A stretch of DNA of 62,944 bases, filler included. It is 7 parts of 7 records of this genome, joined end to end, with 100 filler letters (N's around TTAATTAATTAA, not from the genome) between each part and the next. Parts side by side here need not be neighbours in the genome. Positions count along the whole stretch, not along the records: positions 1 to 8,840 come from SRR31156797_12416; 6 more parts are not named here. One strand, given 5' to 3'. The position numbers and the translations under genes were made by a program. Under the pieces are notes generated by a model. It worked only from the letters and a program-made list of their open reading frames with translations, was not told the origin of the DNA and ran no database searches. This document shows positions 1 to 56,456 of this stretch, piece after piece (the first letter of the stretch is position 1; each line of letters starts with the position of its first letter).

Positions 1-252
1 AATAAGATCCTCCATCCTGGCGTACTTCAGCATCACCAGGTTCCGTCCTTCCTCCCCGGCCCGTTCCAGATCCTCCCTGTAGCTGAGCAGAGTGTCCCTG
101 GACCAAAGCGAATACATGCAGCCTCTGTAGAACCTGAAATCATCCGGCCGCTCCTGGCATGAGGCGGTTTCCCGCGCATTGACGGAAAGGAACATCTCAA
201 GCTCTCTCTCCAGAATCTCATCAATGACCGTATCCCTGCTTATCCCGCCCAT
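1..252 (-). CDS. DUF4125-family protein, N-terminal part (truncated by window edge; absent from ORF track)
   Basis: Manual translation from ATG at 252: MGGISRDTVIDEILERELEMFLSVNARETASCQERPDDFRFYRGCMYSLWSRDTLLSYREDLERAGEEGRNLVMLKYARMEDLI. The ASCQ, WS..L.SY..DL and GRNL...KYARM motifs are typical of DUF4125. The start overlaps the end of the DUF4037 gene. Confidence 0.75.
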   Translation of the reverse strand, partial: MGGISRDTVIDEILERELEMFLSVNARETASCQERPDDFRFYRGCMYSLWSRDTLLSYREDLERAGEEGRNLVMLKYARMEDLI

Positions 253-1166
253 ACATTGATTCCCCGTATCTCTTTGTCTTCGATCCGCTTCTGGATCTCC
301 GGCCCGTGGTCGGGAAGGAAATCGCTGTCCGAGTCGCTGAGCCCGGCGTCCTTCAGGCAGGCGATGATCCGTCCGGCGCAGCTCTCCATCAACTCCCCCT
401 TCCCTTCTCTGGAACCTGTACCCGTCAGCTCCGAAATCAGCTCATAGCTGTACGATCCCAAAACAGGCAGTTCCCTGACGGCGCGGTGGGCCCATTTGTA
501 GAAGGGCTTATACCTTCCGTTCAGGAGGAAGACAATGGAAAGGGCGTCCTCCAGAAACTTCATCCCCGCCTGGTCGGCGGCATAGAGCTCCTTCCGCCGG
601 AGGCTTCTGGCATAGTTATACTGCCCTTCCCGGCCTGCGCTCATACAGCGGGCGGCCAGTTTTTTGAGCCTCACATCCTCTGGATAGAAGGCAAGCAGCC
701 TGTCGCGGATAGAGGCGAAACGACTCCCCGAACCGTAAAAAATCTTGCCGTTGCAGGCCGCCGCCAGGGCGTCCTCCGGAATCCTCAGCCAGCCGAACAG
801 GCTGTCCGGTATACCGGGAATGCCCAGAAATCTCCGGTAATACCTATCCGTTTCCAGTACGCCGACCCGGCCCTCTCCCCAGGCGCTGGTCTTCCTTGCC
901 CGGTAGCCGCCAAAGCTCGCGGGGAGCGAATCGTAGAGCCCCTGCAGCTCCGGCCCCAGGGCAGCGAAGTCATCCCCGTCAAGCCAGATGCAGAATCCAG
1001 GCCCCCAGTCATGGTCCTGTGAGTATTCGTCGTCGAATCCGAAGCACTCCGAACCGTCTCCCGCCAGGCCGATGGCCATCTTCTTCAGATCTACGGCGAA
1101 CTCTCTTTCCAGCACGGGCAGGGCGCAGAGATGGAAATAGTTTTCGCACAGCTCCATTCCCTTCAT
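240..1166 (-). CDS. DUF4037-domain protein (putative nucleotidyltransferase-fold N-terminus plus helical domain)
   Basis: GDGSECFGFDDEYSQDHDWGPGF resembles the GS...DxD NTase signature. C-terminal YPEDVRLKK and PFYKW motifs are typical of DUF4037. Confidence 0.75.
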   Translation of the reverse strand: MKGMELCENYFHLCALPVLEREFAVDLKKMAIGLAGDGSECFGFDDEYSQDHDWGPGFCIWLDGDDFAALGPELQGLYDSLPASFGGYRARKTSAWGEGRVGVLETDRYYRRFLGIPGIPDSLFGWLRIPEDALAAACNGKIFYGSGSRFASIRDRLLAFYPEDVRLKKLAARCMSAGREGQYNYARSLRRKELYAADQAGMKFLEDALSIVFLLNGRYKPFYKWAHRAVRELPVLGSYSYELISELTGTGSREGKGELMESCAGRIIACLKDAGLSDSDSDFLPDHGPEIQKRIEDKEIRGINVWAG

Positions 1167-1331
1167 CAGAAAAGCTCCCCCCTGTTCCGCCTTCAGATTT
1201 ACCGGCTCTGTTCATAGATGAGCCTGTTTAATATATAGCCCCCAATCTGCGGGCTGTCAATTTTCACTGGAGTATCATTATTCCATTCCGGGCCTCTGTT
1301 CGCAGATCATCATCCATGGCATAGTGGGGGC

Positions 1332-2261
1332 ATGAAAAAGACCGGAACTTCCATAGCCTACGCGGCCCTTCTAACGGCGATGATCGTATGGGGCAGCTCC
1401 TTCATAGCCCTGAAGATCGCCTTCTCCCAGTACGATCCGATGTTCGTCATATTCGGAAGGATGGTTCTGGGTCTGTTATTCTTTGTTCCGATTCTGGCAA
1501 GGGACGCCGGAAAGATCAGAAGGCAGGATATCGGACTTATCCTGCTGATGGCCTTCTTCGAGCCCTGTCTCTACTTCGTATTCGAAGCCAAGGCGCTTAC
1601 CCTGACCACCGCCAGCCAGGCCGGTATGATCACCTCCACGCTCCCCCTGATCGTAGGCGTCACGGCCTATTTCATACTGAAGGAAGAGCTGAACAGGACC
1701 ATGCTCCTGGGCTTCTTCCTGGCCATCGCAGGAGTTATCTGGCTGACCCTCGGCGGCAGCGGATCGGAGGATGCGCCCAATCCGATGCTGGGCAATATGA
1801 TGGAACTGCTGGCCATGGTCTGCGCCGCCGGTTACACCCTGAGCCTGAAGCGCCTGAGCTCACGCTACTCCCCCTTCTTCCTGACGGGAGTGCAGACCCT
1901 GATGGGCGCCCTCTTCTTCCTTCCCCTGGTCCTGCTCTCGGATGCGGGCTTCCCCTCCCACTACACGGTCAAGGGCAGCCTGGCGGTCGCCTACCTGGGC
2001 ATAGCGGTCACCCTGGGGGGATACGGGCTCTATAACTTCGGAACCAGCCGCATCCCCGCCAGCAAGTCCTCGGCCTTCGTCAATCTTATCCCCGTCGTTT
2101 CTCTGATCCTGAGCATCGCCATTCTGGGAGAGAAGGTGGGGGTTCATCAGCTTCTGGCCTCGGCCCTGATCCTCTGCGGGGTACTGGTCAGCCAGATCAA
2201 TCCTGACAAAAGCTCCCGTTCCGGAGCGTCCCGCTCGGTTCCCGACTACAATCCCGGTTAG
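1332..2261 (+). CDS. DMT/EamA family transporter
   Basis: About 10 TM segments, an N-terminal WGSSF motif and two EamA-like repeats (..ILKE.. / ..ILGE..). Confidence 0.9.
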   Translation: MKKTGTSIAYAALLTAMIVWGSSFIALKIAFSQYDPMFVIFGRMVLGLLFFVPILARDAGKIRRQDIGLILLMAFFEPCLYFVFEAKALTLTTASQAGMITSTLPLIVGVTAYFILKEELNRTMLLGFFLAIAGVIWLTLGGSGSEDAPNPMLGNMMELLAMVCAAGYTLSLKRLSSRYSPFFLTGVQTLMGALFFLPLVLLSDAGFPSHYTVKGSLAVAYLGIAVTLGGYGLYNFGTSRIPASKSSAFVNLIPVVSLILSIAILGEKVGVHQLLASALILCGVLVSQINPDKSSRSGASRSVPDYNPG

Positions 2262-2425
2262 GGTATCGCATGCTGCGAACAGGCAGTGATCTTCAGTTCC
2301 TCATACCGGCTGTAAACCAGACTCCGGTCCTTGTCCCTTGAAATACAACGGGGTTCCGTTGATCCACGGCCCCTCCAGGGGAAAGGAAAGCCATCAAAAC
2401 CGTCGCCGGCCACACGCCGGAGGCC

Positions 2426-3778
2426 CTAATTCTTAAAACTGTGGATGGGCGCCGGGATTCTACCGCCCCTGTTGATGAAACCGGCGGAGCTGAACTTGCT
2501 TACCGGCAGGATGGGAGCGTAACCCAACAGGCCGCCGAACTCCACCGTTTCGCCCACGCCCTTGCCGTGAACCGGAATGACCCTGACGGCGGTGGTCTTG
2601 TTGTTGATGACGCCGATGGCCGCTTCGTCGGCGATCATACCGGAGATAGTGGTTTCGGGGGTATCCCCGGGAATGGCGATCATATCCAGTCCCACCGAGC
2701 AGACGCTGGTCATGGCTTCCAGCTTGTCGAAGGTCAGGGCGCCGTTCCGAACGGCTTCGATCATCCCTTCGTCCTCGCTGACGGGGATAAAGGCGCCGCT
2801 GAGTCCTCCCACGGAGGAGGAGGCCATGATGCCGCCCTTCTTGACCGCGTCGTTCAGCATGGCCAGGGCGGCGGTAGTCCCGTGGGCGCCGGCCGCTTCC
2901 AGCCCCATCTCTTCAAAGATCCTCGCCACGCTGTCGCCCACCGCGGGAGTGGGAGCCAGGGACAGATCCAGGATTCCGAAGGGAACGTCCAGCCTCTTTG
3001 AGACCTCGTTTCCCACCAGCTGTCCGGCTCGGGTGATCTTGAAGGCGGTCTTCTTGATGTTCTCCGCCACCACCTGAATGGGTTCCCCCTTAACCTTCTC
3101 CAGAGCCCGCTTGACCGTTCCCGGTCCGCTGACGCCGACGTTGATCACCGCTTCCGGTTCTCCCACGCCGTGAAAGGCGCCGGCCATAAAGGGATTGTCA
3201 TCCACCGCATTGGCGAAGATCACCAGCTTGGCGCAGCCGATGGAGTCCCTGTCCCGGGTCAGATAGGCCGCGTCCTTGACGATCTTTCCCATCAGCTTGA
3301 CCGCATCCAGGTTTATACCGGCCCTGGTGCTGCCCAGGTTCACCGAAGAGCACACCCGTTCGGTCTCGCACAGGGCCTGGGGAATGGAATCGATGAGGAC
3401 ACGGTCTCCCCGGGAAAATCCCTTCTGAACCAGGGCGGAGAATCCCCCGATGAAGTTAACCCCCACCTCTTTGGCGGCCCTGTCCAGGGTCCGGGCGTAG
3501 GCCACGTAGTCCTTGTCGCCGCTTGCCGAGGCGATCAGGGACAGGGGAGTGACAGAGATCCGCTTGTTGATAATGGGGATGCCGAATTCCGTTTCGATCT
3601 GGTCTCCCTCTTTTACCAGATTTTCCGCGTACCTTGTAATCTTGTCGTAGATCCTGGTCCGGGATTTCTCGCCGTCTGAATCGATGCAGTCCATCAGGGA
3701 GATTCCCATGGTGATGGTCCTGATATCGAGCTTCTCTTCCTCAATCATGCGATTGGTTTCGATGACTTTATTCTTCAT
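2426..3778 (-). CDS. UPF0210/DUF711 PFL-like family protein
   Basis: [31 protein letters not shown] and [12 protein letters not shown] motifs; paired with an ACT protein as usual. Confidence 0.9.
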
Positions 3779-3810
3779 AAACGCTGTGATCCTCCGCTGC
3801 CCTTGTCGTC

Positions 3811-4086
3811 CTAGATTTCATTCATGTAGTCGAAGATCTCTTCCCGCTGGATCTTGACGGACAGCCCCAGTTCTTTCCCCAGGGCCTCCAGCGTATTCTG
3901 CAGCTCGATAAACTCGCAGCTGACCTCTGACAGGTTCACCAGCATCATCATCGTAAAATAATCCTGAAGTATGGTCTGACTGATGTCCTCGACGTTAACG
4001 CTCTTCTCCGCCAGAACCTTGGTGACCGAATAGATGATACCCACTTTGTCTTTACCGACAACCGTAATAATAGCTTTCCCTTTCAA
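3811..4086 (-). CDS. ACT-domain protein (UPF0237)
   Basis: [14 protein letters not shown]...NVEDISQT motif; lies directly upstream of UPF0210; TTG start with a GGAGG RBS. Confidence 0.9.
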
Positions 4087-4345
4087 CTGGTGCCTCCCGA
4101 AGTATCCTTCATTTATAGAAAATCCGCGCCTTTACGTCTAGTCAGAACACGGGGGAGTGCCATCTTCAGTGGCCGGCGGCCCTGCCTCCTCCTGTGGCGG
4201 GCTCGATTGCGCCGTACCTGTCGGGAGGAACGAAACGAGCTCTCCGGAGAGGGATTTCCCGTCCCTGGAAAGAATCCGGCCGCTCGGAAGGGATTTCCTT
4301 ACATTTTCTTTGCGTCCTTCAATTTATTGGACCATAATAAAAAAC

Positions 4346-4720
4346 ATGAACATCCTGATCATAGACGACTCCGGTGTTATGCGGCGGATCCACAAGAACA
4401 CCCTCATTGAGAATCAGATTCCCGAAGAGAGCCTTATCGAGGCGGCCGACGGAAAGGAAGCTCTCCAGAAGGCCAATGACAATGAGATCACCCTCTTTCT
4501 GGTAGACTGGAACATGCCCAAGCTGGACGGACTGGAATTCGTCCGGAGGCTCAGGGGGACGACCAGGTACAAGACCACCCCCATCATCATGGTCACCTCG
4601 GAAGCGGCGAAATACAATGTCATCCAGGCCATCAATGCGGGGGTCACGGATTACGTGGTCAAGCCTATCAAAGGCAATGTCCTTTGGGAGAAAGTGGCGT
4701 CCTATCTGATCAAAGGCTGA
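4346..4720 (+). CDS. cheY: CheY-like single-domain response regulator
   Basis: MNILIIDDS...LVDWNMP...MVT...YVVKP; start reassigned to ATG 4346. Confidence 0.85.
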   Translation: MNILIIDDSGVMRRIHKNTLIENQIPEESLIEAADGKEALQKANDNEITLFLVDWNMPKLDGLEFVRRLRGTTRYKTTPIIMVTSEAAKYNVIQAINAGVTDYVVKPIKGNVLWEKVASYLIKG

Positions 4721-4726
4721 TTGAAA

Positions 4727-5185
4727 ATGAAAGCGAAGTTTATCAATCCGTTTATCAACGCGGCTCAGAGGCTCTTCAAGGAGTATATGGAACTGGACGT
4801 CCACGCGGGCAAGCCCTACCTCCTCGGGGATCCCCAGAATCTGGAAGGGGTTTCGGCCATCATAGGCCTGGCGGGAGATACCACGGGAGCGGTGGTCCTG
4901 ACCTTTACGAGGGAGACGGCCATCGCCATGGTGTCCCGGCTGGAGGGCAAGACCTATGTCGCCCTGGGAGCTGAGATACTGGACGGCGTGGGGGAGATGG
5001 TGAATATCATCGCGGGGAATGCGAAGAAGGATCTGCTGGAATACAAAATCGTCATATCCCTGCCGGGGATCATTACGGGGCACGATTACAAGATCAACTG
5101 GCCCCAGGGGATCCCGGTCATCTCCATCCCCTATGAATCGGAGTTAGGCTCGTTCGCCATCAACGTTTCCATCAAGGAGGAGTAA
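4727..5185 (+). CDS. cheX: CheX chemotaxis phosphatase
   Basis: FINPFI N-terminus and the GEMVNIIAGNA (ExxN) catalytic motif. Confidence 0.9.
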   Translation: MKAKFINPFINAAQRLFKEYMELDVHAGKPYLLGDPQNLEGVSAIIGLAGDTTGAVVLTFTRETAIAMVSRLEGKTYVALGAEILDGVGEMVNIIAGNAKKDLLEYKIVISLPGIITGHDYKINWPQGIPVISIPYESELGSFAINVSIKEE

Positions 5186-5186
5186 G

Positions 5187-7391
5187 GTGCGCTTCAGGTC
5201 CATCCAGGTCAAGATCGTCTCGGTTCTCCTGGCGGTTCTCACCGTAGGGGTCAGCTTTTCCATCTCCTTCTCTCTGAGGAATCAGCAAAAAAATCTGATA
5301 GAAGCCTCACAGCAGACCCTGGCCCTGAACACCCAGGTTCTGAACCATACCATCAACAACATCATGCTCAGCGGGGAAGCCCCCCTGGCCAACAGAACCA
5401 TGAACGACCTGAGGAACATGCCCGAGTTCCTGGAGTACGAGATCTACAGACGGGACGGCACCATAGCCTTCAGCGACTACGAAACCCTGGATTTCGTCAA
5501 CCGCTTTCAGGACAGGTTCATGTTCGAACAGACCCCGCGGATCGACGGCACCATGCTGGAGGACCAGGGCTTCAAAGAGGTGCTGAAGTTTTCCACCCCC
5601 TATGTGTTTCTGGACGAGGGGGCCCAGGAGATGGAGTACTACTTCCCTATCCTGAACTACGCCGACTGCCGGAGCTGTCACGGCGACGACCACTTCATCC
5701 GGGGGATCTCCCATTTCAGGATCAGCCTGGCCGATATCTATGCCAAGGTCGGCGCCGCAAGGCAAACCCTCAGCCTCTTCTTCCTGGTCATCGGTTTGCT
5801 TATCTTTGCGGGCATCACCCTGGTGCTCCGGAGGATCATCATCGCCCCCATCCTGGGGATAGGCAGCATCGTCTCCCGCGTGGGGGAAGGGGACCTGGAG
5901 GTCTCGGTCGACCTGAGGCAGAGGGACGAGCTGGGAGTCCTGGCGGGCCGGATCAACGATATGATAAGGGGACTCAAGGCCAGCAAGGAACTGGAGCTGG
6001 AGAACACGAGGATAGAGGCCAGACTGGACGAAAGCCGGAAGTATCTGGACAACATCAACGAGGGCCTGCTGCTCCTGGACCGGGATTTCCGGATTACCAG
6101 CGAGTACTCAGCCTTCCTCACTTCCCTGTTCGAGCAGAAGGATCTGGGAGGAAAACCCTTTCCCGAGTTCATCTACCCCGACGAAAAAGAGAGTCAGGAA
6201 GCCCGGGAAGAGATGGAGGGATTTCTGAGGATCATGTTCAACAACAGCACCGCCGCCCTGAGCATGATCATGGATATCAATCCTCTGGCGGAGAAGGAGA
6301 TCATCCTCCCCAGCGGGCGCAAGATCATCGTCAGCGCGGCCTTTCAGAGGATCATGGAAGACGGGGAAGTCAGGAACCTGATGGTCCTGTTCCAGGATAT
6401 GACAGGGATCATCGAATCCAGAGAGGCCCTGGAGGCGGAGCGGCAGATCCATGAATCCGAGCTGGAACAGATCGCCGCCATCCTGAAACTGGGCCCCCGT
6501 ATCTTCGAGGAGTTCGTCGCCTCGGCGAGGGAGGTGTTCCACTACATCCGGGAGAACAGGGATAACTTCGGCCGTCAGGAGATCCTCAACAAGGCCTTCC
6601 GGGACACCCACTCCCTCAAGGGGACGGCCCGCTATCTGAAGTTCAACGTCATGGAGCAGCTGGCCCACCGGATGGAAAGCGATTTCGCCGCTCTGAGGGA
6701 CAACGCCGGCAGCGATCCCCCTTTGCCCGAACTGGATGAGCGGCTGGAGAGCCTGGAGGAGGAGCTGAAATCCATAGACGGCATCATCGAGCGCTTCCGC
6801 CAGTTCTCGCGGGGAGGAGAAAGCGAAGCCCCGGAGATGGATATCTTCCGCCTCCGCCTGGAGGAGATGTGCGACGACCTTTCCCGGGAGCTGGAGAAGG
6901 AGGTGCGCCTGGATTTCCACTCCGACTGGGACAGGCTGCCCGGTCTCCCCAGGGTTCAGTCCTCGGTGTTCCACCTCCTGCGAAACGCCATGGATCACGG
7001 CATTGAGGACTCCTTTGAACGCCTGGCCGCTGGCAAAGAGGAAACGGCCAGGCTCTCCCTCTCCTTCCGGAAGGAGGAGGGAGACATGATGCTTGTGGAA
7101 CTGAAAGACGACGGGCGGGGACTGGATTTCCAGGCTCTGGAACAGCGTGCCCTGGAAACGGGCCTGCTCAAACCGGGCAAACACTTCCCCTCACAGATCC
7201 TCAAGACCCTGTTTATGCCGGGCTTCAGCAGCCGGGACCAGGCGGACAGCATCTCGGGCCGGGGCGTCGGCCTGGATGCGGTAAGAGCCGATATGCAGGC
7301 TCTGGGAGGAAAGATCAACGTGAAAACCGCCAAAGGCAGGGGAACGAGCTTCAGTCTCCTGATCCCCCTGGCGTCTCTGGAGGCAGAATGA
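5187..7391 (+). CDS. Membrane-anchored CheA-like histidine kinase: TM, periplasmic CxxCH heme-c domain, TM, HAMP, PAS-like, HPt, CheA-type HATPase; no CheW/P5 domain
   Basis: Two TM helices flank CRSCH (5667-5681). HAMP: GDLEV...DELGVLA. HPt: FRDTHSLKG...AHRMES. CheA-type N/G1/F/G2 boxes: HLLRNAMDHGIE, DDGRG, FMPGFS, SGRGVGLD. The protein ends right after the ATPase domain. Confidence 0.85.
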   Translation: MRFRSIQVKIVSVLLAVLTVGVSFSISFSLRNQQKNLIEASQQTLALNTQVLNHTINNIMLSGEAPLANRTMNDLRNMPEFLEYEIYRRDGTIAFSDYETLDFVNRFQDRFMFEQTPRIDGTMLEDQGFKEVLKFSTPYVFLDEGAQEMEYYFPILNYADCRSCHGDDHFIRGISHFRISLADIYAKVGAARQTLSLFFLVIGLLIFAGITLVLRRIIIAPILGIGSIVSRVGEGDLEVSVDLRQRDELGVLAGRINDMIRGLKASKELELENTRIEARLDESRKYLDNINEGLLLLDRDFRITSEYSAFLTSLFEQKDLGGKPFPEFIYPDEKESQEAREEMEGFLRIMFNNSTAALSMIMDINPLAEKEIILPSGRKIIVSAAFQRIMEDGEVRNLMVLFQDMTGIIESREALEAERQIHESELEQIAAILKLGPRIFEEFVASAREVFHYIRENRDNFGRQEILNKAFRDTHSLKGTARYLKFNVMEQLAHRMESDFAALRDNAGSDPPLPELDERLESLEEELKSIDGIIERFRQFSRGGESEAPEMDIFRLRLEEMCDDLSRELEKEVRLDFHSDWDRLPGLPRVQSSVFHLLRNAMDHGIEDSFERLAAGKEETARLSLSFRKEEGDMMLVELKDDGRGLDFQALEQRALETGLLKPGKHFPSQILKTLFMPGFSSRDQADSISGRGVGLDAVRADMQALGGKINVKTAKGRGTSFSLLIPLASLEAE

Positions 7392-7903
7392 AAAAAGCGG
7401 CCGGCCTGATCGGAGCTCTCTTGCTCCTGCCCTCCTGCGCTCCCCGGCAGGAAGAGATCGTCCTGACTCATCTCAAGGCGGATGAGATCAGCGGGGAAAG
7501 GCTCTGGGAGAGGATCGGTTCCGAATCGCCCTACCAGACATACGGAGAGTGGCCGGGACACGAGGGCCTCCGCCCGGGCCAATCCCCACACGGGGTCTGG
7601 CACCGGGTCTATACCAACCAGGCGCTGCGTCAGGCCCTTCCGATCAATGACGGCGAGGCACCCATCGGAACCATTATCGTGAAGGAGAACTACACACCCG
7701 CCAGAGAGCTGGACAAGCTGACGGTGATGGCCAAGGTAGGGGGCTACAGCCCCGAAACCGGTGACTGGTTCTGGGCGATGTACAGCCCTGACGGAGAGGT
7801 CCTGGCAGAAGGGAGCCCCAGGGGATGCGTATCCTGCCATAGCGGCAAGGGGTACAACGACTATATCATCATAAAGAACCTGGATGAGCCTCTGGGCGAA
7901 TAG
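7388..7903 (+). CDS. Cytochrome P460-family c-type heme lipoprotein
   Basis: Lipobox-like LLLLPSC (Cys17), RVYTN, GTIIVKENY, MAK...GDWFW and a C-terminal CVSCH (7826-7840). ATGA overlap with the kinase stop. Confidence 0.8.
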   Translation: MKKAAGLIGALLLLPSCAPRQEEIVLTHLKADEISGERLWERIGSESPYQTYGEWPGHEGLRPGQSPHGVWHRVYTNQALRQALPINDGEAPIGTIIVKENYTPARELDKLTVMAKVGGYSPETGDWFWAMYSPDGEVLAEGSPRGCVSCHSGKGYNDYIIIKNLDEPLGE

Positions 7904-8075
7904 ACGGCATAAGAAACGATCATAAATACCCTTTATCTCGCTATGCTCTGAGGATTTCGTCCTCAAAACAGAGGCAGTCCTTCTCCCAGCCCGGACAGCG
8001 ATTCGATCAGGTTCATGCGTTCCGTCGTTCAATGTCATAAGTCAGCGGATTGATATCGTTATTTAAATATTTAAA

Positions 8076-8104
8076 TTGCAACCATTAGGATGTCCTAATA
8101 AAAT
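8076..8104 (+). promoter_or_regulatory. sigma70-type promoter with a palindromic operator in the spacer
   Basis: TTGCAA (8076-8081), 17 nt, TAAAAT (8099-8104); inverted repeat ATTAGGA-tg-TCCTAAT at 8084-8099. Confidence 0.55.
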
Positions 8105-8135
8105 TTATACTAATTCAATTCGTACGGGAGGAATC

Positions 8136-8840
8136 ATGAAAAAGATTCTCGGTATTTCAGTTCTTTTTCTTTGTCTTTCTTTTCCCCTCGCAGGACAGAG
8201 CGCTGCAGGCATTACGACAAGAGATATAAGCTATGAAGTGGATGGAAAGGAATTTATCGGATTCATCGCCTATGACGCGTCGCTCAAAGCTCCCCGGCCC
8301 GGCGTCATTGTCGTGCACGAGTGGAGGGGGATCAATGATTATGCCAGGAAGAGGGCCGTCGATCTGGCCCTGGAGGGTTATGTCGCCTTCGCCCTTGATA
8401 TGTACGGAGACGGCGAAGAGCTGTCCTTGGATATGGCCAGATCCATGTCCCGCAGCATCGGTTCCGATTTCCCTCTCCTCGAAGAGAGATTCAACGCGGC
8501 CCTGAAGGTTCTTCATGACCAGGATATGGTCGACCGGAAGAGAACGGCGGCCATCGGGTATTGCTTCGGAGGCGGAGTCGTCCTGAACATGGCCAGACTG
8601 GGAACCGGCCTGAACGGAGTCGTCAGCTTTCACGGCTCTCTCAATACTGGCCTGGACGCCCGAAGAGGCGATATAAAGACCAGGATACTCGCCATTCAGG
8701 GAGACGGGGATCCCGTTGCTCCAGCGGAAAAGCAGAAAGCCTTCAAAAAGGAAATGGAAGACAGCGGAGCCGAGTTCGAGTACATTATCTACAGAGATGT
8801 GGCTGCTCATAACTTCACCAATCCCGAAGGAAGGACCTAC
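8136..8840 (+). CDS. Dienelactone hydrolase family protein, exported (3' truncated)
   Basis: Signal peptide, VHEWRG, nucleophile motif GYCFGG, SFHG and AHNFTNP; start at ATG 8136 after GGAGG. Confidence 0.9.
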
Positions 8841-8940
8841 NNNNNNNNNNNNNNNNNNNNNNNNNNNNNNNNNNNNNNNNNNNNTTAATTAATTAANNNN
8901 NNNNNNNNNNNNNNNNNNNNNNNNNNNNNNNNNNNNNNNN
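8841..8940. other. Artificial contig spacer
   Basis: 44 N + TTAATTAATTAA (stops in all six frames) + 44 N. Confidence 0.98.
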
Positions 8941-17836: not shown

Positions 17837-17936
17837 NNNNNNNNNNNNNNNNNNNNNNNNNNNNNNNNNNNNNNNNNNNNTTAATTAATTAANNNNNNNN
17901 NNNNNNNNNNNNNNNNNNNNNNNNNNNNNNNNNNNN
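17837..17936. other. Artificial contig spacer
   Basis: 44 N + TTAATTAATTAA + 44 N. Confidence 0.98.
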
Positions 17937-29675: not shown

Positions 29676-29775
29676 NNNNNNNNNNNNNNNNNNNNNNNNN
29701 NNNNNNNNNNNNNNNNNNNTTAATTAATTAANNNNNNNNNNNNNNNNNNNNNNNNNNNNNNNNNNNNNNNNNNNN
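29676..29775. other. Artificial contig spacer
   Basis: 44 N + TTAATTAATTAA + 44 N. Confidence 0.98.
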
Positions 29776-31099: not shown

Positions 31100-32629
31100 A
31101 TGCCCCTGAGTCTGAAAGAATTCCACCACACTTACCGCTCCCGGATTATTGACGAATGGGTGGACAGGCTGAAGGAAAACGCAGGGCCCCTGTACGCCGC
31201 CAGACCCCTTGGAGAGCTTGTGGGAACCATAACGCAGGCTTTCGAGGCCAATTACCATTTCCTGGTCGAAGGGCGGATGGGTCCCATCAACCGGTTCATT
31301 GATAAAATCTGTAAAAAGCGCCTTGAAACCGGGTTTCTCCTGTCGGACGTTCAAACGGCGTTCGAATTCTACCGGATCATCGTTATCCCGATCCTGGCGC
31401 AACAGTGCTCCAACCGGGATTTTGTCCAGGCAGTGGAAAAAATCAACTGCTGCCTGGCCTATACCATTCGCCGTTTCAGCGAACATTTTCAAGATATGCA
31501 CGAGAAAAAAATTCTGGACCATAACCGGCAGTTGGAAGACCAGGTTCGGACCAGGACGAGGGCGCTTCGGGAATCGGAATTACGCTACAAAATACTGGTG
31601 GAAGAGATCAATGACGGGTACTTTGTCATCCGGGACCGGATAGTTGTCTTTGCCAACCGCGCCTTCTGCCAGATGCACGGATATCTGCCGGAAGAGGTCC
31701 TGGGCAAGAAATTTTATAACTTTTTGGCCCCCGTGGACCGAAAAAGCGTCATCGATATTTACAAAAAAAGCATTGAAAATCAACCCAGTCCCGCCATATT
31801 CGAATACATGCGTCTGACCAAGGACGGAAAAGAATATCCCACGGAAATCAGGGCGAATACAGCGGATTATGATGGCCGGTTGTCCAACATCGGCATCTGC
31901 AGGGACATGACTGAACGGGTAAAAATGGAAAGAAAGGTCAGGGAGTCGGAACGGATGGCCTATATCGGCCAGATCACCACCTCCCTTTCCCACGAAATTC
32001 GAAATCCTCTCTCAACCGTCAAAATGAATCTTCAGATACTGGAGAAAAATCCGGACATTCTGGGGAACGATAAACGCCGCGTCAAGATCTCCATTCGGGA
32101 AACGACCCGGCTGGAACGGATTCTCAACCAGTTGCTCGATTTTGCCAAACCTCTCCAAGTGGAATTTTCACCCGTTGACCTCAATGGGGTCCTGAACATC
32201 TGCCGGGAAACCCTTGACGTTAAATTCAAGGAGAAGCGCTTGAGGGTCACGGAGAATTTTGATGAGACGGCCCCTCTTCTGCAGGGCGACGCGGGTAAAT
32301 TGGAGCAGGCCTTTTTCAATCTTTTCTTCAATGCCGTGGATGCCTCCGCCCAGGGCGGCCGCATCCACATTAAAAGCCTTTACCATGACGATTCAGAAAA
32401 CCCCCATATGGAAGTGGTCGTCAAGGATGAGGGGCACGGCATTGAATCCGAAGTGATGAAAAAAATCTTCAAACCCTTTTTTTCCACCCGAACCAAAGGG
32501 GCCGGTCTCGGTCTTTCCAACGTTAAACGGATTGTTTGGGCCCATGGCGGTTCTGTCAGAGCTGAAAACCGAAGATCCAAAGGCGCGACCTTCCGCGTAA
32601 CCCTCCCTTTAGGCAGAAGACATGGCTAA
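31100..32629 (+). CDS. Sensor histidine kinase (RsbRD_N-like N-terminus, PAS, HisKA, HATPase)
   Basis: IIDEWVDRL helical N-terminus, PAS (FANRAF..MHGY), SHEIRNPL, NAVDA, DEGHG, GAGLGL. Confidence 0.88.
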   Translation: MPLSLKEFHHTYRSRIIDEWVDRLKENAGPLYAARPLGELVGTITQAFEANYHFLVEGRMGPINRFIDKICKKRLETGFLLSDVQTAFEFYRIIVIPILAQQCSNRDFVQAVEKINCCLAYTIRRFSEHFQDMHEKKILDHNRQLEDQVRTRTRALRESELRYKILVEEINDGYFVIRDRIVVFANRAFCQMHGYLPEEVLGKKFYNFLAPVDRKSVIDIYKKSIENQPSPAIFEYMRLTKDGKEYPTEIRANTADYDGRLSNIGICRDMTERVKMERKVRESERMAYIGQITTSLSHEIRNPLSTVKMNLQILEKNPDILGNDKRRVKISIRETTRLERILNQLLDFAKPLQVEFSPVDLNGVLNICRETLDVKFKEKRLRVTENFDETAPLLQGDAGKLEQAFFNLFFNAVDASAQGGRIHIKSLYHDDSENPHMEVVVKDEGHGIESEVMKKIFKPFFSTRTKGAGLGLSNVKRIVWAHGGSVRAENRRSKGATFRVTLPLGRRHG

Positions 32630-33977
32630 AATTCTGATCATTGACGACGAGCATTCCATTCTGGAATCCCTGGACATGTTTCTGGGGGAAAAAGGTCACA
32701 GCGTATTCAAGGCGGATAACGGTAAAGACGGGTACACCATTTTTGCCCGGGAAACGCCGGAGGTGGTCATCCTGGATATTCGTCTCCCCGACATGAACGG
32801 TCTGGATGTGTTGGCGCGAATCCAGGAGAACCCGTTACCCACAAAGGTTGTCATGATGACGGCCTTTCAGGATATGGAAACAACCATTGAAGCCATGAAA
32901 CGGGGCGCCTACGACTACCTCCATAAGCCCCTGGATGCGGAACTGGTGGAGAAAACGGTCAATCGCGCCTTGCATATCCTGAGGGTTGACCGTGAAACAC
33001 CCCGCATGAAAGAGGATGCCCCTCCGCCCAACAAGGACGTGATCATTGGAAAAAGTGAAAATATGCGGTCGATTTTCAAAATGATCGGCCTGGTGTGTCA
33101 AAACCGGGCCACCGTTCTCATTGAAGGGGAAACGGGAACGGGCAAGGAACTGGTTGCCAGGACCATCCACCGCAACTGCCCCTTTAAGGAAGAACCCTTT
33201 GTTACCATGGATTGCTCATCCACGGTGGAAACCCTTTTGGAGAGCGAACTTTTCGGACATGAAAAGGGGGCCTTCACCGGCGCCACAACCACCCAGAAGG
33301 GGCGGATCGAGCTGGCCGGAAAAGGGACCCTTTTCCTGGATGAACTGGGAGAATTACCCCAGCAGCTTCAGAGTAAATTCTTAGGGTTTCTTCAGCGTCG
33401 CGAATTTACGCGGGTGGGAGGTCACCAAATACTCAAATCCCGCTGCCGCATCATCGGCGCCACCAACCGGGATTTGACCGCCATGGTGCGAAAGAGAGAA
33501 TTCAAGGAGGATCTTTACTACCGCCTGCGCGTGGTCACCCTTCATGTGCCCTCCCTACGGGAACGGTTGTCGGACATTCCGGAACTGGTGAAGCATTTTC
33601 TGCAAAAGATCAACCATGAACTGCACACCGAGGTTACCAAGCTGCAGGCGGGCGTCATAGAAAGGCTCATGGCCCACCCGTGGACGGGGAATGTTCGCGA
33701 ACTGGAGAACTGCCTGGTGGAAGCGGTGGTGCGGGCCATAGGAAATGTGATCCTTTTGGATGACATGGAAGATATTCTTGACTCCGACAGCGGCCTGGAC
33801 TCCGAAGGCCTGTGCGGATATTCCCTCCCCCGCATGGAAAAGGAACACATCGAAAAAACCCTTGGCCGCCTGGCCTGGAATCGCACCCGGGCGGCCCAAG
33901 CCTTGGGGATCTCGCTCCCCACCCTGCGCAGCAAAATCCGAAAATACCGTATCACCGTGCCATCCCTCCGATGGTGA
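32622..33977 (+). CDS. sigma54-dependent response regulator (NtrC-family bEBP)
   Basis: Receiver domain, GETGTGKE, ESELFGHEKGAFTGA, WTGNVREL, C-terminal Fis HTH. Confidence 0.95.
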   Translation: MAKILIIDDEHSILESLDMFLGEKGHSVFKADNGKDGYTIFARETPEVVILDIRLPDMNGLDVLARIQENPLPTKVVMMTAFQDMETTIEAMKRGAYDYLHKPLDAELVEKTVNRALHILRVDRETPRMKEDAPPPNKDVIIGKSENMRSIFKMIGLVCQNRATVLIEGETGTGKELVARTIHRNCPFKEEPFVTMDCSSTVETLLESELFGHEKGAFTGATTTQKGRIELAGKGTLFLDELGELPQQLQSKFLGFLQRREFTRVGGHQILKSRCRIIGATNRDLTAMVRKREFKEDLYYRLRVVTLHVPSLRERLSDIPELVKHFLQKINHELHTEVTKLQAGVIERLMAHPWTGNVRELENCLVEAVVRAIGNVILLDDMEDILDSDSGLDSEGLCGYSLPRMEKEHIEKTLGRLAWNRTRAAQALGISLPTLRSKIRKYRITVPSLRW

Positions 33978-35560: not shown

Positions 35561-35660
35561 NNNNNNNNNNNNNNNNNNNNNNNNNNNNNNNNNNNNNNNN
35601 NNNNTTAATTAATTAANNNNNNNNNNNNNNNNNNNNNNNNNNNNNNNNNNNNNNNNNNNN
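35561..35660. other. Artificial contig spacer
   Basis: 44 N + TTAATTAATTAA + 44 N. Confidence 0.98.
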
Positions 35661-46398: not shown

Positions 46399-46498
46399 NN
46401 NNNNNNNNNNNNNNNNNNNNNNNNNNNNNNNNNNNNNNNNNNTTAATTAATTAANNNNNNNNNNNNNNNNNNNNNNNNNNNNNNNNNNNNNNNNNNNN
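46399..46498. other. Artificial contig spacer
   Basis: 44 N + TTAATTAATTAA + 44 N. Confidence 0.98.
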
Positions 46499-56356: not shown

Positions 56357-56456
56357 NNNNNNNNNNNNNNNNNNNNNNNNNNNNNNNNNNNNNNNNNNNN
56401 TTAATTAATTAANNNNNNNNNNNNNNNNNNNNNNNNNNNNNNNNNNNNNNNNNNNN
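56357..56456. other. Artificial contig spacer
   Basis: 44 N + TTAATTAATTAA + 44 N. Confidence 0.98.

Follow-up and report, generated by a model that had tools for sequence, protein, structure and literature searches.

How can a CheA-type kinase core be controlled where neither a chemoreceptor nor CheW is encoded with it? This question is raised by a four-gene operon at positions 4346..7903 of a stretch of DNA of 62,944 nucleotides (hereafter the window, meaning this stretch at its full length), whose first 8,840 positions come from the record SRR31156797_12416. On one strand and in this order, the operon encodes CheY, CheX, a membrane-bound sensor kinase of 734 amino acids and a cytochrome P460-family lipoprotein. 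To our knowledge, control of CheA cores is held to take place only within receptor-CheW arrays. A CheA-type core with its own sensor and with a private CheY and CheX would constitute a minimal system for asking how such a core is switched. The operon consists of two modules, as the P460 protein goes with the haem sensor of the kinase whatever the output, and CheY and CheX go with the kinase core whatever the input. On this basis it is proposed here that a periplasmic input formed by two haem proteins and responsive to nitric oxide (NO) or redox state drives the CheA-like kinase and, through it, CheY, with CheX acting as reset, a proposal in which we place about as much trust as doubt.

The operon and its CheA-like kinase

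Direct reading of the open reading frames (ORFs) and their junctions confirmed what a sequence-only reading of this DNA had reported, namely four co-oriented genes with gaps of 6 nt and 1 nt and an ATGA overlap. The gene cheY (4346..4720, + strand) extends from an ATG to a TGA and is followed, after 6 nt, by cheX (4727..5185, +; ATG to TAA). One nucleotide further on begins the kinase gene (5187..7391, +), which uses GTG as start codon, with AAGGAGG ahead of it, and ends in a TGA. The ATG of the P460 gene (7388..7903, +) lies within an ATGA that shares 4 nt with the kinase stop, an overlap which suggests translational coupling. As the same genes occur in the same order in a spirochaete genome (G382) and in many metagenome contigs, the arrangement is not a product of chance. 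The operon had also been described as lacking genes for a methyl-accepting chemotaxis protein (MCP), CheW, CheR and CheB. This is upheld by Pfam, as none of these domains was found on the piece of the window that carries the operon (1-8840).

The kinase is composed of a transmembrane (TM) segment, a sCache_heme domain, a second TM segment, HAMP, PAS and histidine phosphotransfer (HPt) domains, a linker and a CheA-type ATPase; it is without P2 and without a P5/CheW domain. Its HPt domain (P1-like; 6501..6761, +; Pfam Hpt, E = 4e-11) includes, in RDTHSLKGTARY, the predicted phospho-acceptor His475 (6609-6611), and His475, Lys478 and Gly479 of the HSLKG motif are invariant in all 22 full-length homologues. 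The ATP-binding domain (P4-like; 6963..7373, +; Pfam HATPase_c, 7.6e-14) exhibits N, G1 and G2 boxes, with H596, N600, D603, H604, G605, D641, G643, G645 and S690-G695 invariant among the 22 aligned homologues. This domain is assigned to the CheA type because NCBIfam CheA models match residues 557-729 with E-values of 1.5e-37 and 2e-33, scores that lie below the whole-protein cut-offs of these models. The HAMP domain (5823..5978, +; residues 213-264; Pfam HAMP, 2.3e-8) is followed by a cytoplasmic PAS-like domain (6060..6404, +; residues 292-406; Pfam PAS_9, E = 0.0016 and 19.1 bits, below cut-off). This PAS-like region is kept in kinases with other inputs, whose matches begin near residue 275.

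No CheW domain (PF01584) was found in the kinase by Pfam, HATPase_c ending five residues short of the stop, and the earlier description of a CheA-like kinase devoid of CheW holds in this respect. In the relevant part of a survey of CheA proteins, all CheAs (100%) possess the CheW domain and CheA is a protein without a sensor (PMC10782961). As the kinase of the window has no CheW domain and carries its own TM-HAMP-PAS sensor, it falls outside the definition of CheA used in that survey. Judged by its domains, it is CheA-like at the phosphotransfer step and built like a classical sensor kinase. Approximately 100 full-length homologues with 39-66% identity could be found, and every one with a named source is assigned to Spirochaetales, Spirochaetaceae, Spirochaeta or Oceanispirochaeta. 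According to the homologue search, the N-terminal 270 residues also occur in fusions with an HD-GYP domain and with class III cyclases. No longer homologue with the sensor region came up in a search for such forms, a negative that counts as weak evidence.

The periplasmic part of the kinase (5277..5762, +; residues 31-192) was modelled with AlphaFold2 (AF2) from 49 sequences as a haem-c Cache domain, with a predicted local distance difference test score (pLDDT) of 88.6. Its haem-c attachment motif CRSCH (5667..5681, +; Cys161, Cys164 and His165) is located between the hydrophobic segments 3-21 and 188-225 and therefore faces the periplasm. A CxxCH at this position is invariant in the full-length homologues (22/22) as well as in a broader set of sensor domains (49/49). 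In both sets Met60 (codon 5364..5366, +), the predicted distal axial haem ligand, is likewise invariant (22/22 and 49/49), and it aligns with Met60 of GSU0582 (with the numbering offset derived from His143 at chain position 109). A Foldseek search with the model gave 3B42 (GSU0935) as the top match and 3B47 (GSU0582) at rank four, and thereafter the sCache domains of WalK, TlpB and DcuS. A profile of the sensor domain, compared with the PDB, matched 3B47 (E = 6.3e-6), 3B42 (0.0086) and 5B82 (Tll0287; 0.094), and the CxxCH motifs coincide in these alignments. On PF21563/PF11845 (cut-off 27), homologues of the domain reach 28.1 and 27.3 bits, whereas the domain of the window stays at 17.1 bits. 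By profile and structural model, the sensor domain is thus of the GSU0582/GSU0935, Cache_heme type. For domains of the GSU0582/GSU0935 type, a part of PMC8396549 describes Met as distal ligand of the reduced haem, which is displaced by NO and CO and released upon oxidation, and proposes this as the signal. The Cache_heme family has been placed in the Cache superfamily, and NO binding is reported for a signalling member in the section of PMC12889525 concerned. The sequence-only reading had counted two CxxCH proteins in the operon; the flanking hydrophobic segments place CRSCH in the periplasm and a second motif, CVSCH, is found in the lipoprotein, while haem attachment itself is predicted for both.

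The first two genes of the operon complete the signalling core. CheY is a single-domain receiver of 124 amino acids (Pfam Response_reg, 5e-25) in which Asp7, Asp8, Asp54, Thr84 and Lys106, as read from the sequence, form a complete receiver set. Its best NCBIfam match is CheY PRK10610, with 93.8 bits under a cut-off of 189 bits. CheX (152 amino acids) is a homologue of CheY-P phosphatases (Pfam CheX, PF13690, 1.6e-22; NCBIfam CheX_Thtogales, 68.9 bits at a cut-off of 280). It carries Glu90-x-x-Asn93, an ExxN arrangement which we take to be the catalytic motif of CheC/CheX. Genome G382, which holds the full orthologue of the operon, contains six CheX-family places, i.e., five besides that of the operon. 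It also contains five CheW-domain places, two of them within CheA-sized frames, with canonical CheA/CheW being separate from the operon. The CheX of the operon is thus a paralogue reserved for this unit, which exists alongside ordinary chemotaxis. G382 also has a gene for cytochrome c assembly.

Gene neighbourhoods of the two modules

To see which of these genes belong together, the kinase was used to search 401 Spirochaetota genomes, giving 39 matching places. The 26 loci fetched comprised the single full-length match, every one of the 13 places matched by the N-terminus only and, of those matched by the C-terminus only, the best 12 (leaving 13 weaker ones). They were compared by tblastn with the four proteins of the window. 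The only full orthologue, in G382, is accompanied by cheY, cheX and the P460 gene in the order of the window. All 13 N-terminal matches are, according to Pfam, sensor-HAMP-cyclases, and nine of them have a P460 homologue immediately upstream. The 12 C-terminal matches exhibit the complementary arrangement. Each has cheY and cheX immediately upstream (12/12), none has a P460 gene (0/12), and the kinases all have polytopic or other N-termini free of CxxCH (12/12). Altogether, cheY is found upstream of the kinase core in 13/13 genome loci. The C-terminal matches (L134-L145) are CheA-like kinases with PAS, HPt and CheA-type ATPase and no CheW, whose N-terminal domain has four to six TM segments; one of them has a periplasmic domain of approximately 380 amino acids and HAMP.

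A scan of metagenomes with the sensor-domain alignment yielded 59 loci, 29 of them of the kinase type. Wherever the DNA extends past the kinase, a P460 gene is located downstream (16/16 loci, 14 distinct sequences; on the same strand in 15, convergent in L170), the other 13 of the 29 being cut off before this position. Conservation of P460 next to kinase homologues, which the sequence-only reading had named as a point on which its idea could fail, was therefore found in 16/16 metagenome loci and in the one genome orthologue. The same reading had spoken of a self-contained circuit. In agreement with this, all 27 kinase loci with DNA ahead of the kinase have cheX as its direct upstream neighbour; in 25 of the 27 cheY is present too, and the other two are cut inside cheX. 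Among the assessable metagenome cyclase loci, P460 is encoded directly upstream in 12 of 21. The link between P460 and the haem domain is strengthened by these cyclase loci, as P460 accompanies the sensor domain even with a cyclase output.

The P460 family was also approached from its own side. A search with PF16694 gave 50 places in 43 of the 401 Spirochaetota genomes; 12 places were already among the fetched loci, and 36 of the remaining 38 were fetched (the other two are fragments in G012). In 22 of these 36 places P460 directly follows a CxxCH HAMP-cyclase of approximately 480 amino acids, often with a 4-nt overlap, and the sensor profile matches with E-values from 1e-10 to 1e-71. These 22 cyclases with a downstream P460 form a second, more distant sensor-cyclase clade. 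In total, 34 of 50 P460-family genes adjoin a gene for haem-sensor signalling (33 cyclases, 1 kinase). The physiological role of P460 and cytochrome c'-beta proteins is unsettled outside nitrifiers and methanotrophs. That two thirds of the P460-family genes in these genomes adjoin a haem-Cache signalling protein points to a sensory role of P460, one open to test with two small soluble domains. One sensor-cyclase beside a P460 gene (L254:2570-3978, in G284) is split into overlapping ORFs, a sensor of 176 amino acids and a HAMP-cyclase of 306 amino acids, which is a frameshift, a pseudogene or an assembly error.

In a tree of sensor domains (59 rows and 161 columns, built by a quick method), kinase- and cyclase-linked domains interleave, with at least three changes being forced by the starred branches. 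The sensor alignment was also inspected for an interface with P460, by comparing 31 P460-linked with seven P460-less domains. The seven columns found just track one subclade, and the most suggestive of them, Glu64, was rejected as an interface column since Lys is also present at this position in the P460-linked L126 and L132.

The P460 partner, a candidate mechanism and its rivals

The last gene of the operon encodes a protein of 171 amino acids (Pfam PF16694, 3.5e-10 and 40.8 bits at a cut-off of 27). Its N-terminus, MKKAAGLIGALLLLPSC, has the features of a signal peptide with a lipobox-like Cys17. A membrane tether is a general property of its homologues, with a lipobox-like Cys in 25 and a signal anchor in five of 30 distinct sequences. 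An AF2 model built from 31 sequences has a pLDDT of 89.0, and the best 25 Foldseek matches are all cytochromes P460 or c'-beta. The best alignments of the family profile are those with Thermus thermophilus c'-beta (TtCP-beta, 7EAD; E = 1.4e-9) and with McCP-beta. The family is large, with 3,668 cluster representatives at E<=0.001 and 177 at E<=1e-30. Proteins of 340-685 amino acids with two or three tandem P460 domains also occur (P0245, P0246, P0248, P0255 and others).

The haem-c attachment motif CVSCH (7826..7840, +; Cys147, Cys150 and His151) is invariant (31/31). Three further positions characterise the predicted haem pocket. His68 (codon 7589..7591, +) occupies the distal "cap" position, is His in 31/31 sequences and aligns with Phe29 of TtCP-beta and Phe32 of McCP-beta. 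Lys99 (codon 7682..7684, +) is located at the position of the haem-Lys cross-link, is Lys in 30/31 sequences and aligns with Phe61 of 7EAD and McCP-beta. According to Table 2 of PMC11928373, the Phe61 position of c'-beta corresponds to Lys70, Lys78 and Lys106 of P460s. Thr112 stands at the position of the distal carboxylate (Gly82/Glu96/Asp102), where Thr is found in 27 and Asp in one of the 31 sequences. The partner of the kinase is therefore predicted to be a cross-linked haem protein of the P460 type with no distal carboxylate and with an unusual distal His. A distant group of cyclase-linked P460s has the same pocket (His 20/20, Lys 20/20), and the pocket residues are identical in sensor-linked and sensor-less P460 groups.

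Taken together, these features allow a mechanism to be outlined. The Cache domain of the kinase would carry a covalent c-haem, with His165/Met60 ligation predicted as in GSU0582 and GSU0935, and the membrane-tethered lipoprotein a P460 haem with a predicted Lys99 cross-link and His68 on the distal side. Both haem proteins would cooperate on the periplasmic side of the inner membrane. There the five-coordinate, open P460 haem may be the site at which a small molecule reacts first. By analogy with related haem proteins, this ligand would most likely be NO, with oxidants, redox state or O2 being possible. The P460 haem could then act on the sensor haem, through contact or exchange of an electron, and thereby set its coordination or redox state, and displacement of Met60 would shift TM2, HAMP and PAS. 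In response, the CheA-type core would autophosphorylate its HPt domain at His475 and hand the phosphate to the CheY of the operon. The dedicated CheX would strip it off again, which would make the signal fast and reversible. The target of CheY may be the flagellar switch or something else. As the kinase would be its own receptor, no chemoreceptor, CheW or methylation system would be needed.

Several observations weigh against this mechanism or parts of it. Starting with the kinase, no P3 dimerisation domain (PF02895) was found in it even at E<=10, the region being taken up by a linker of 67 residues; the sensitivity of the PF02895 model is described as low in the relevant part of PMC10782961. 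The sensor domain of the window itself scores 17.1 bits on PF21563 (cut-off 27). The sensor-domain tree is poorly resolved, with 28 of 56 inner branches open, and does not show that the kinase fusion arose once. Furthermore, P460 is absent beside sensors of the same clade in four of 13 genome and nine of 21 metagenome cyclase loci as well as in the single HD-GYP locus, and PF16694 gave no match in G142, G143 and G209, draft genomes with such P460-less sensors. Since same-clade sensors without P460 exist, the P460 partner is not obligatory; in six of the nine P460-less metagenome cyclase loci, the sensors are at most 34% identical to the query. Conversely, the His/Lys/Thr subtype of P460 is found in 48 of 301 genomes of the phylum of G403 (labelled uncultured Geobacter sp.), with a pocket of His in 31/31, Lys in 30/31 and Thr in 29/31. 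Within 1.5 kb of the 30 best P460 loci of this phylum (L272-L301) no sensor domain was found. As the subtype is sensor-less in these loci, it has a role outside signalling. Finally, we infer that haem is attached, that the Lys cross-link forms and that the two proteins touch, and likewise what the ligand is, in which direction the kinase is controlled and where CheY acts.

The sensor-less P460s lead to another explanation, in which P460 is an enzyme and the c-haem of the sensor its electron acceptor or donor. The signal would then be the turnover of P460, which the sensor haem would report through its oxidation state (Met60 bound or released) and not by direct binding of a ligand. Such a redox relay is possible, though on the whole we tend to doubt it. 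It draws on the company that P460 keeps elsewhere. In 20 loci of the G403 phylum that were scanned by Pfam, membrane partners of a redox type adjoin P460, namely a DUF4079 membrane protein directly after it in seven and a DUF2231/DUF6529 membrane domain fused to cytochrome c in four; a DsbH-like thioredoxin is present in four. In spirochaetes, a gene for a pentahaem cytochrome is located directly upstream of five cyclase-P460 pairs (L256, L259, L260, L268 and L270), a cytochrome c assembly gene stands alongside three pairs, and a cupredoxin is encoded beside the sensor-less L247 and L249. The P460 subtype is thus, as a rule, encoded together with a redox or haem protein of the membrane, which in spirochaetes is a sensor, and this keeps a reading by electron exchange alive. 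The occurrence of the same pocket in sensor-linked and sensor-less P460s, together with the redox-linked Met60 switch published for GSU0582/GSU0935 (in the part of PMC8396549 concerned), would also fit. However, a P460 without the carboxylate has no known substrate (carboxylate requirement as given in Table 2 of PMC11928373), the haems of P460 and c'-beta proteins are high-spin and of low potential and thereby atypical electron carriers, and no pentahaem or other cytochrome gene was found by Pfam on the 8.8-kb piece of the window.

The pentahaem genes themselves (L256:1250-2569, L259:1260-2561, L260:5948-7264, L268:5946-7259 and L270:1210-2523) encode proteins of 433-439 amino acids with five CxxCH motifs and a weak match to PF13435 (Cytochrome_C554). 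Pentahaem cytochrome, sensor-cyclase and P460 thereby form a cluster of three haem proteins in five Spirochaetota genomes. The two sensor-less P460s with a cupredoxin (L247:2582-4218 and L249:3634-5337) are located between a DUF5777 beta-barrel protein and this small cupredoxin.

A bolder form of the two-haem input, which we regard as unlikely, joins both ideas in an enzyme-coupled wire from haem to haem. Here the Lys-cross-linked, His-capped P460 would react with a nitrogen oxide or an oxidant and exchange an electron with the c-haem of the Cache domain, whose Met switch would directly gate the CheA core or, in sister loci, the cyclase. If true, this would be the first physiological role of a P460 or c'-beta protein outside nitrogen-cycle specialists, and it would provide a natural, array-free way of controlling a CheA core through HAMP and PAS.

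It is also conceivable that P460 is a bystander which only scavenges or buffers NO or an oxidant near the membrane and is co-expressed for the same stress without any input to the signal. Buffering of and defence against NO have been proposed as roles of cytochromes c' (in the part of PMC11928373 concerned), and sensors do occur without the partner and the partner without sensors. Yet one would expect a stress effector to lie downstream of the pathway and not to be joined to the sensor gene. P460 and sensor genes adjoin each other in two sensor clades, with a kinase as well as with a cyclase as output and in either gene order, and their stop and start codons often overlap. Moreover, a phosphorelay ending in a single-domain CheY has no obvious route to gene induction. 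A mere protector is for these reasons improbable.

Hydroxylamine (NH2OH), which the sequence-only reading had listed among the candidate ligands, is the least likely key to the system: oxidation of NH2OH to NO by P460, with the Cache haem sensing this NO, would fit with Lys at the cross-link position (30/31), with the activity of classical P460s and, in principle, with the invariant distal His as proton acceptor, but Thr at the carboxylate position (27/31, not Glu or Asp) makes classical NH2OH oxidation unlikely, as carboxylate-less NsP460 does not oxidise NH2OH (Table 2 of PMC11928373), and those spirochaete P460s that possess Lys and Glu (L235, L236, L237 and L239) do not adjoin any sensor, so that this conversion appears very improbable. 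One of these Lys and Glu P460s (L236:3936-5696) is arranged tail to tail with a protein of 376 amino acids that has an MCP signal domain, after an ankyrin-repeat protein of 672 amino acids.

Relation to known systems and genomic setting

All constituents of the proposed two-haem system are known in kind, i.e., the Cache_heme sensor, the CheA-type core and the P460-family protein, and its novelty lies in their combination. The closest relatives of the sensor are the Geobacter sulfurreducens MCPs GSU0582 and GSU0935 (3B47/3B42), which share the periplasmic haem-c domain, the aligned CxxCH and Met60 and the TM-sensor-TM-HAMP layout. However, these are chemoreceptors that act through CheW and CheA, whereas the domain is fused to a CheA-type core here, and the identity is 11-19%; in the portions of the literature on them covered here, no P460 partner is reported. 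Similarly, the Cache_heme-HAMP receptor of Pseudomonas azotoformans, as described in parts of PMC12889525 and 10.64898/2026.05.25.727664, has an NO-binding input of c-haem Cache and HAMP and depends on a separate partner from the same operon. That partner is, unlike the periplasmic haem protein found here, a cytoplasmic Ser/Thr kinase acting on HAMP, and in the operon of the window the output is fused to the sensor.

The P460 protein shares its fold and the C-terminal CxxCH with NeP460 (2JE3), McP460 (6HIU), NsP460 (6AMG), McCP-beta (6HIH) and TtCP-beta (7EAD). It has the cross-link Lys of P460s and, as in NsP460 and c'-beta, no distal carboxylate. It differs from them in that the cap is an invariant His, where the known proteins have Phe or Arg, and in being membrane-anchored, linked to signalling and encoded by a non-nitrifier; the identity is 17-29%. 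Compared with the CheA-CheY-CheX core of spirochaetes and Thermotoga, the operon likewise encodes an HPt His, a CheA-type ATPase, a single-domain CheY and CheX together, but it has no P5/CheW, no P2, no CheW gene and no MCP gene, and the kinase has a TM sensor, HAMP and PAS of its own.

In systems such as H-NOX with HnoK and NosP with NahK, a free-standing haem protein senses NO and controls a kinase or cyclase encoded next to it. The operon resembles these systems in that a small haem protein is encoded beside the signalling enzyme which it is thought to set. In contrast, H-NOX and NosP are cytoplasmic b-haem sensors (according to part of 10.64898/2026.05.25.727664) and act on a haem-less kinase, whereas here both proteins would be periplasmic c-haem proteins. 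The sister loci in spirochaetes have the same input of Cache haem and P460, with a class III cyclase (cyclic AMP, cAMP) as output and not a CheA-type phosphorelay with CheY and CheX. As this input pair leads to cAMP in some loci and to a phosphorelay in others, nature offers a swap by which the functions of input and output could be separated.

A search of the literature, with subscription journals outside its range, found no paper linking cytochrome P460 to the sensor domain of a histidine kinase and nothing relevant on sensor-fused CheA-like kinases. The term "P460" is absent from the main texts on Cache_heme (PMC12889525, 10.64898/2026.05.25.727664 and its later version). In the P460 review PMC11928373, "sensor" occurs solely in entries of the reference list, and operon, lipoprotein and gene neighbourhood are unmentioned. 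The earlier statement that no system with this gene set has been characterised holds insofar as no description of the four-gene circuit was found; the sensor domain is of the known GSU0582/GSU0935, Cache_heme type.

The window consists of seven contig pieces whose joints are spacers of the form N44-TTAATTAATTAA-N44 with stops in six frames (8841-8940, 17837-17936, 29676-29775, 35561-35660, 46399-46498 and 56357-56456). The operon is confined to piece 1-8840, and therefore sequence past 8840 provides no genomic context. The G+C content drops from approximately 0.59 in the first piece to approximately 0.46-0.51 in the second, so adjoining pieces are not neighbours in the genome. Besides the operon, Pfam identified genes for DUF4037, EamA, DUF711, an ACT-domain protein and a dienelactone hydrolase on piece 1-8840, and none of its remaining genes is related to chemotaxis or nitrogen metabolism. 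A scan for promoters and terminators gave no site resembling a terminator, and the region ahead of cheY yielded nothing informative. In an independent DNA run (X2), a contig of 14,411 nt contains the four-gene stretch in full, with 13 differences.

Contigs from three RNA libraries map to the operon. Those of X6 are 93-97% alike and cover cheY, cheX and parts of the kinase, one of them (record 7; 4687-5295) running from the last part of cheY through cheX into the kinase; they probably come from a relative. An X13 contig matches 6951-7153 with zero differences, and contigs of X14 match 6735-6871 and 7873-7990. As carry-over of DNA into RNA libraries is possible, the evidence for expression of the operon is weak. 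On another contig piece of the window (31100-33977), a PAS-HisKA-HATPase kinase is followed by an end-overlapping regulator with receiver, sigma-54 activator and HTH_8 domains, which together resemble an NtrB/NtrC pair.

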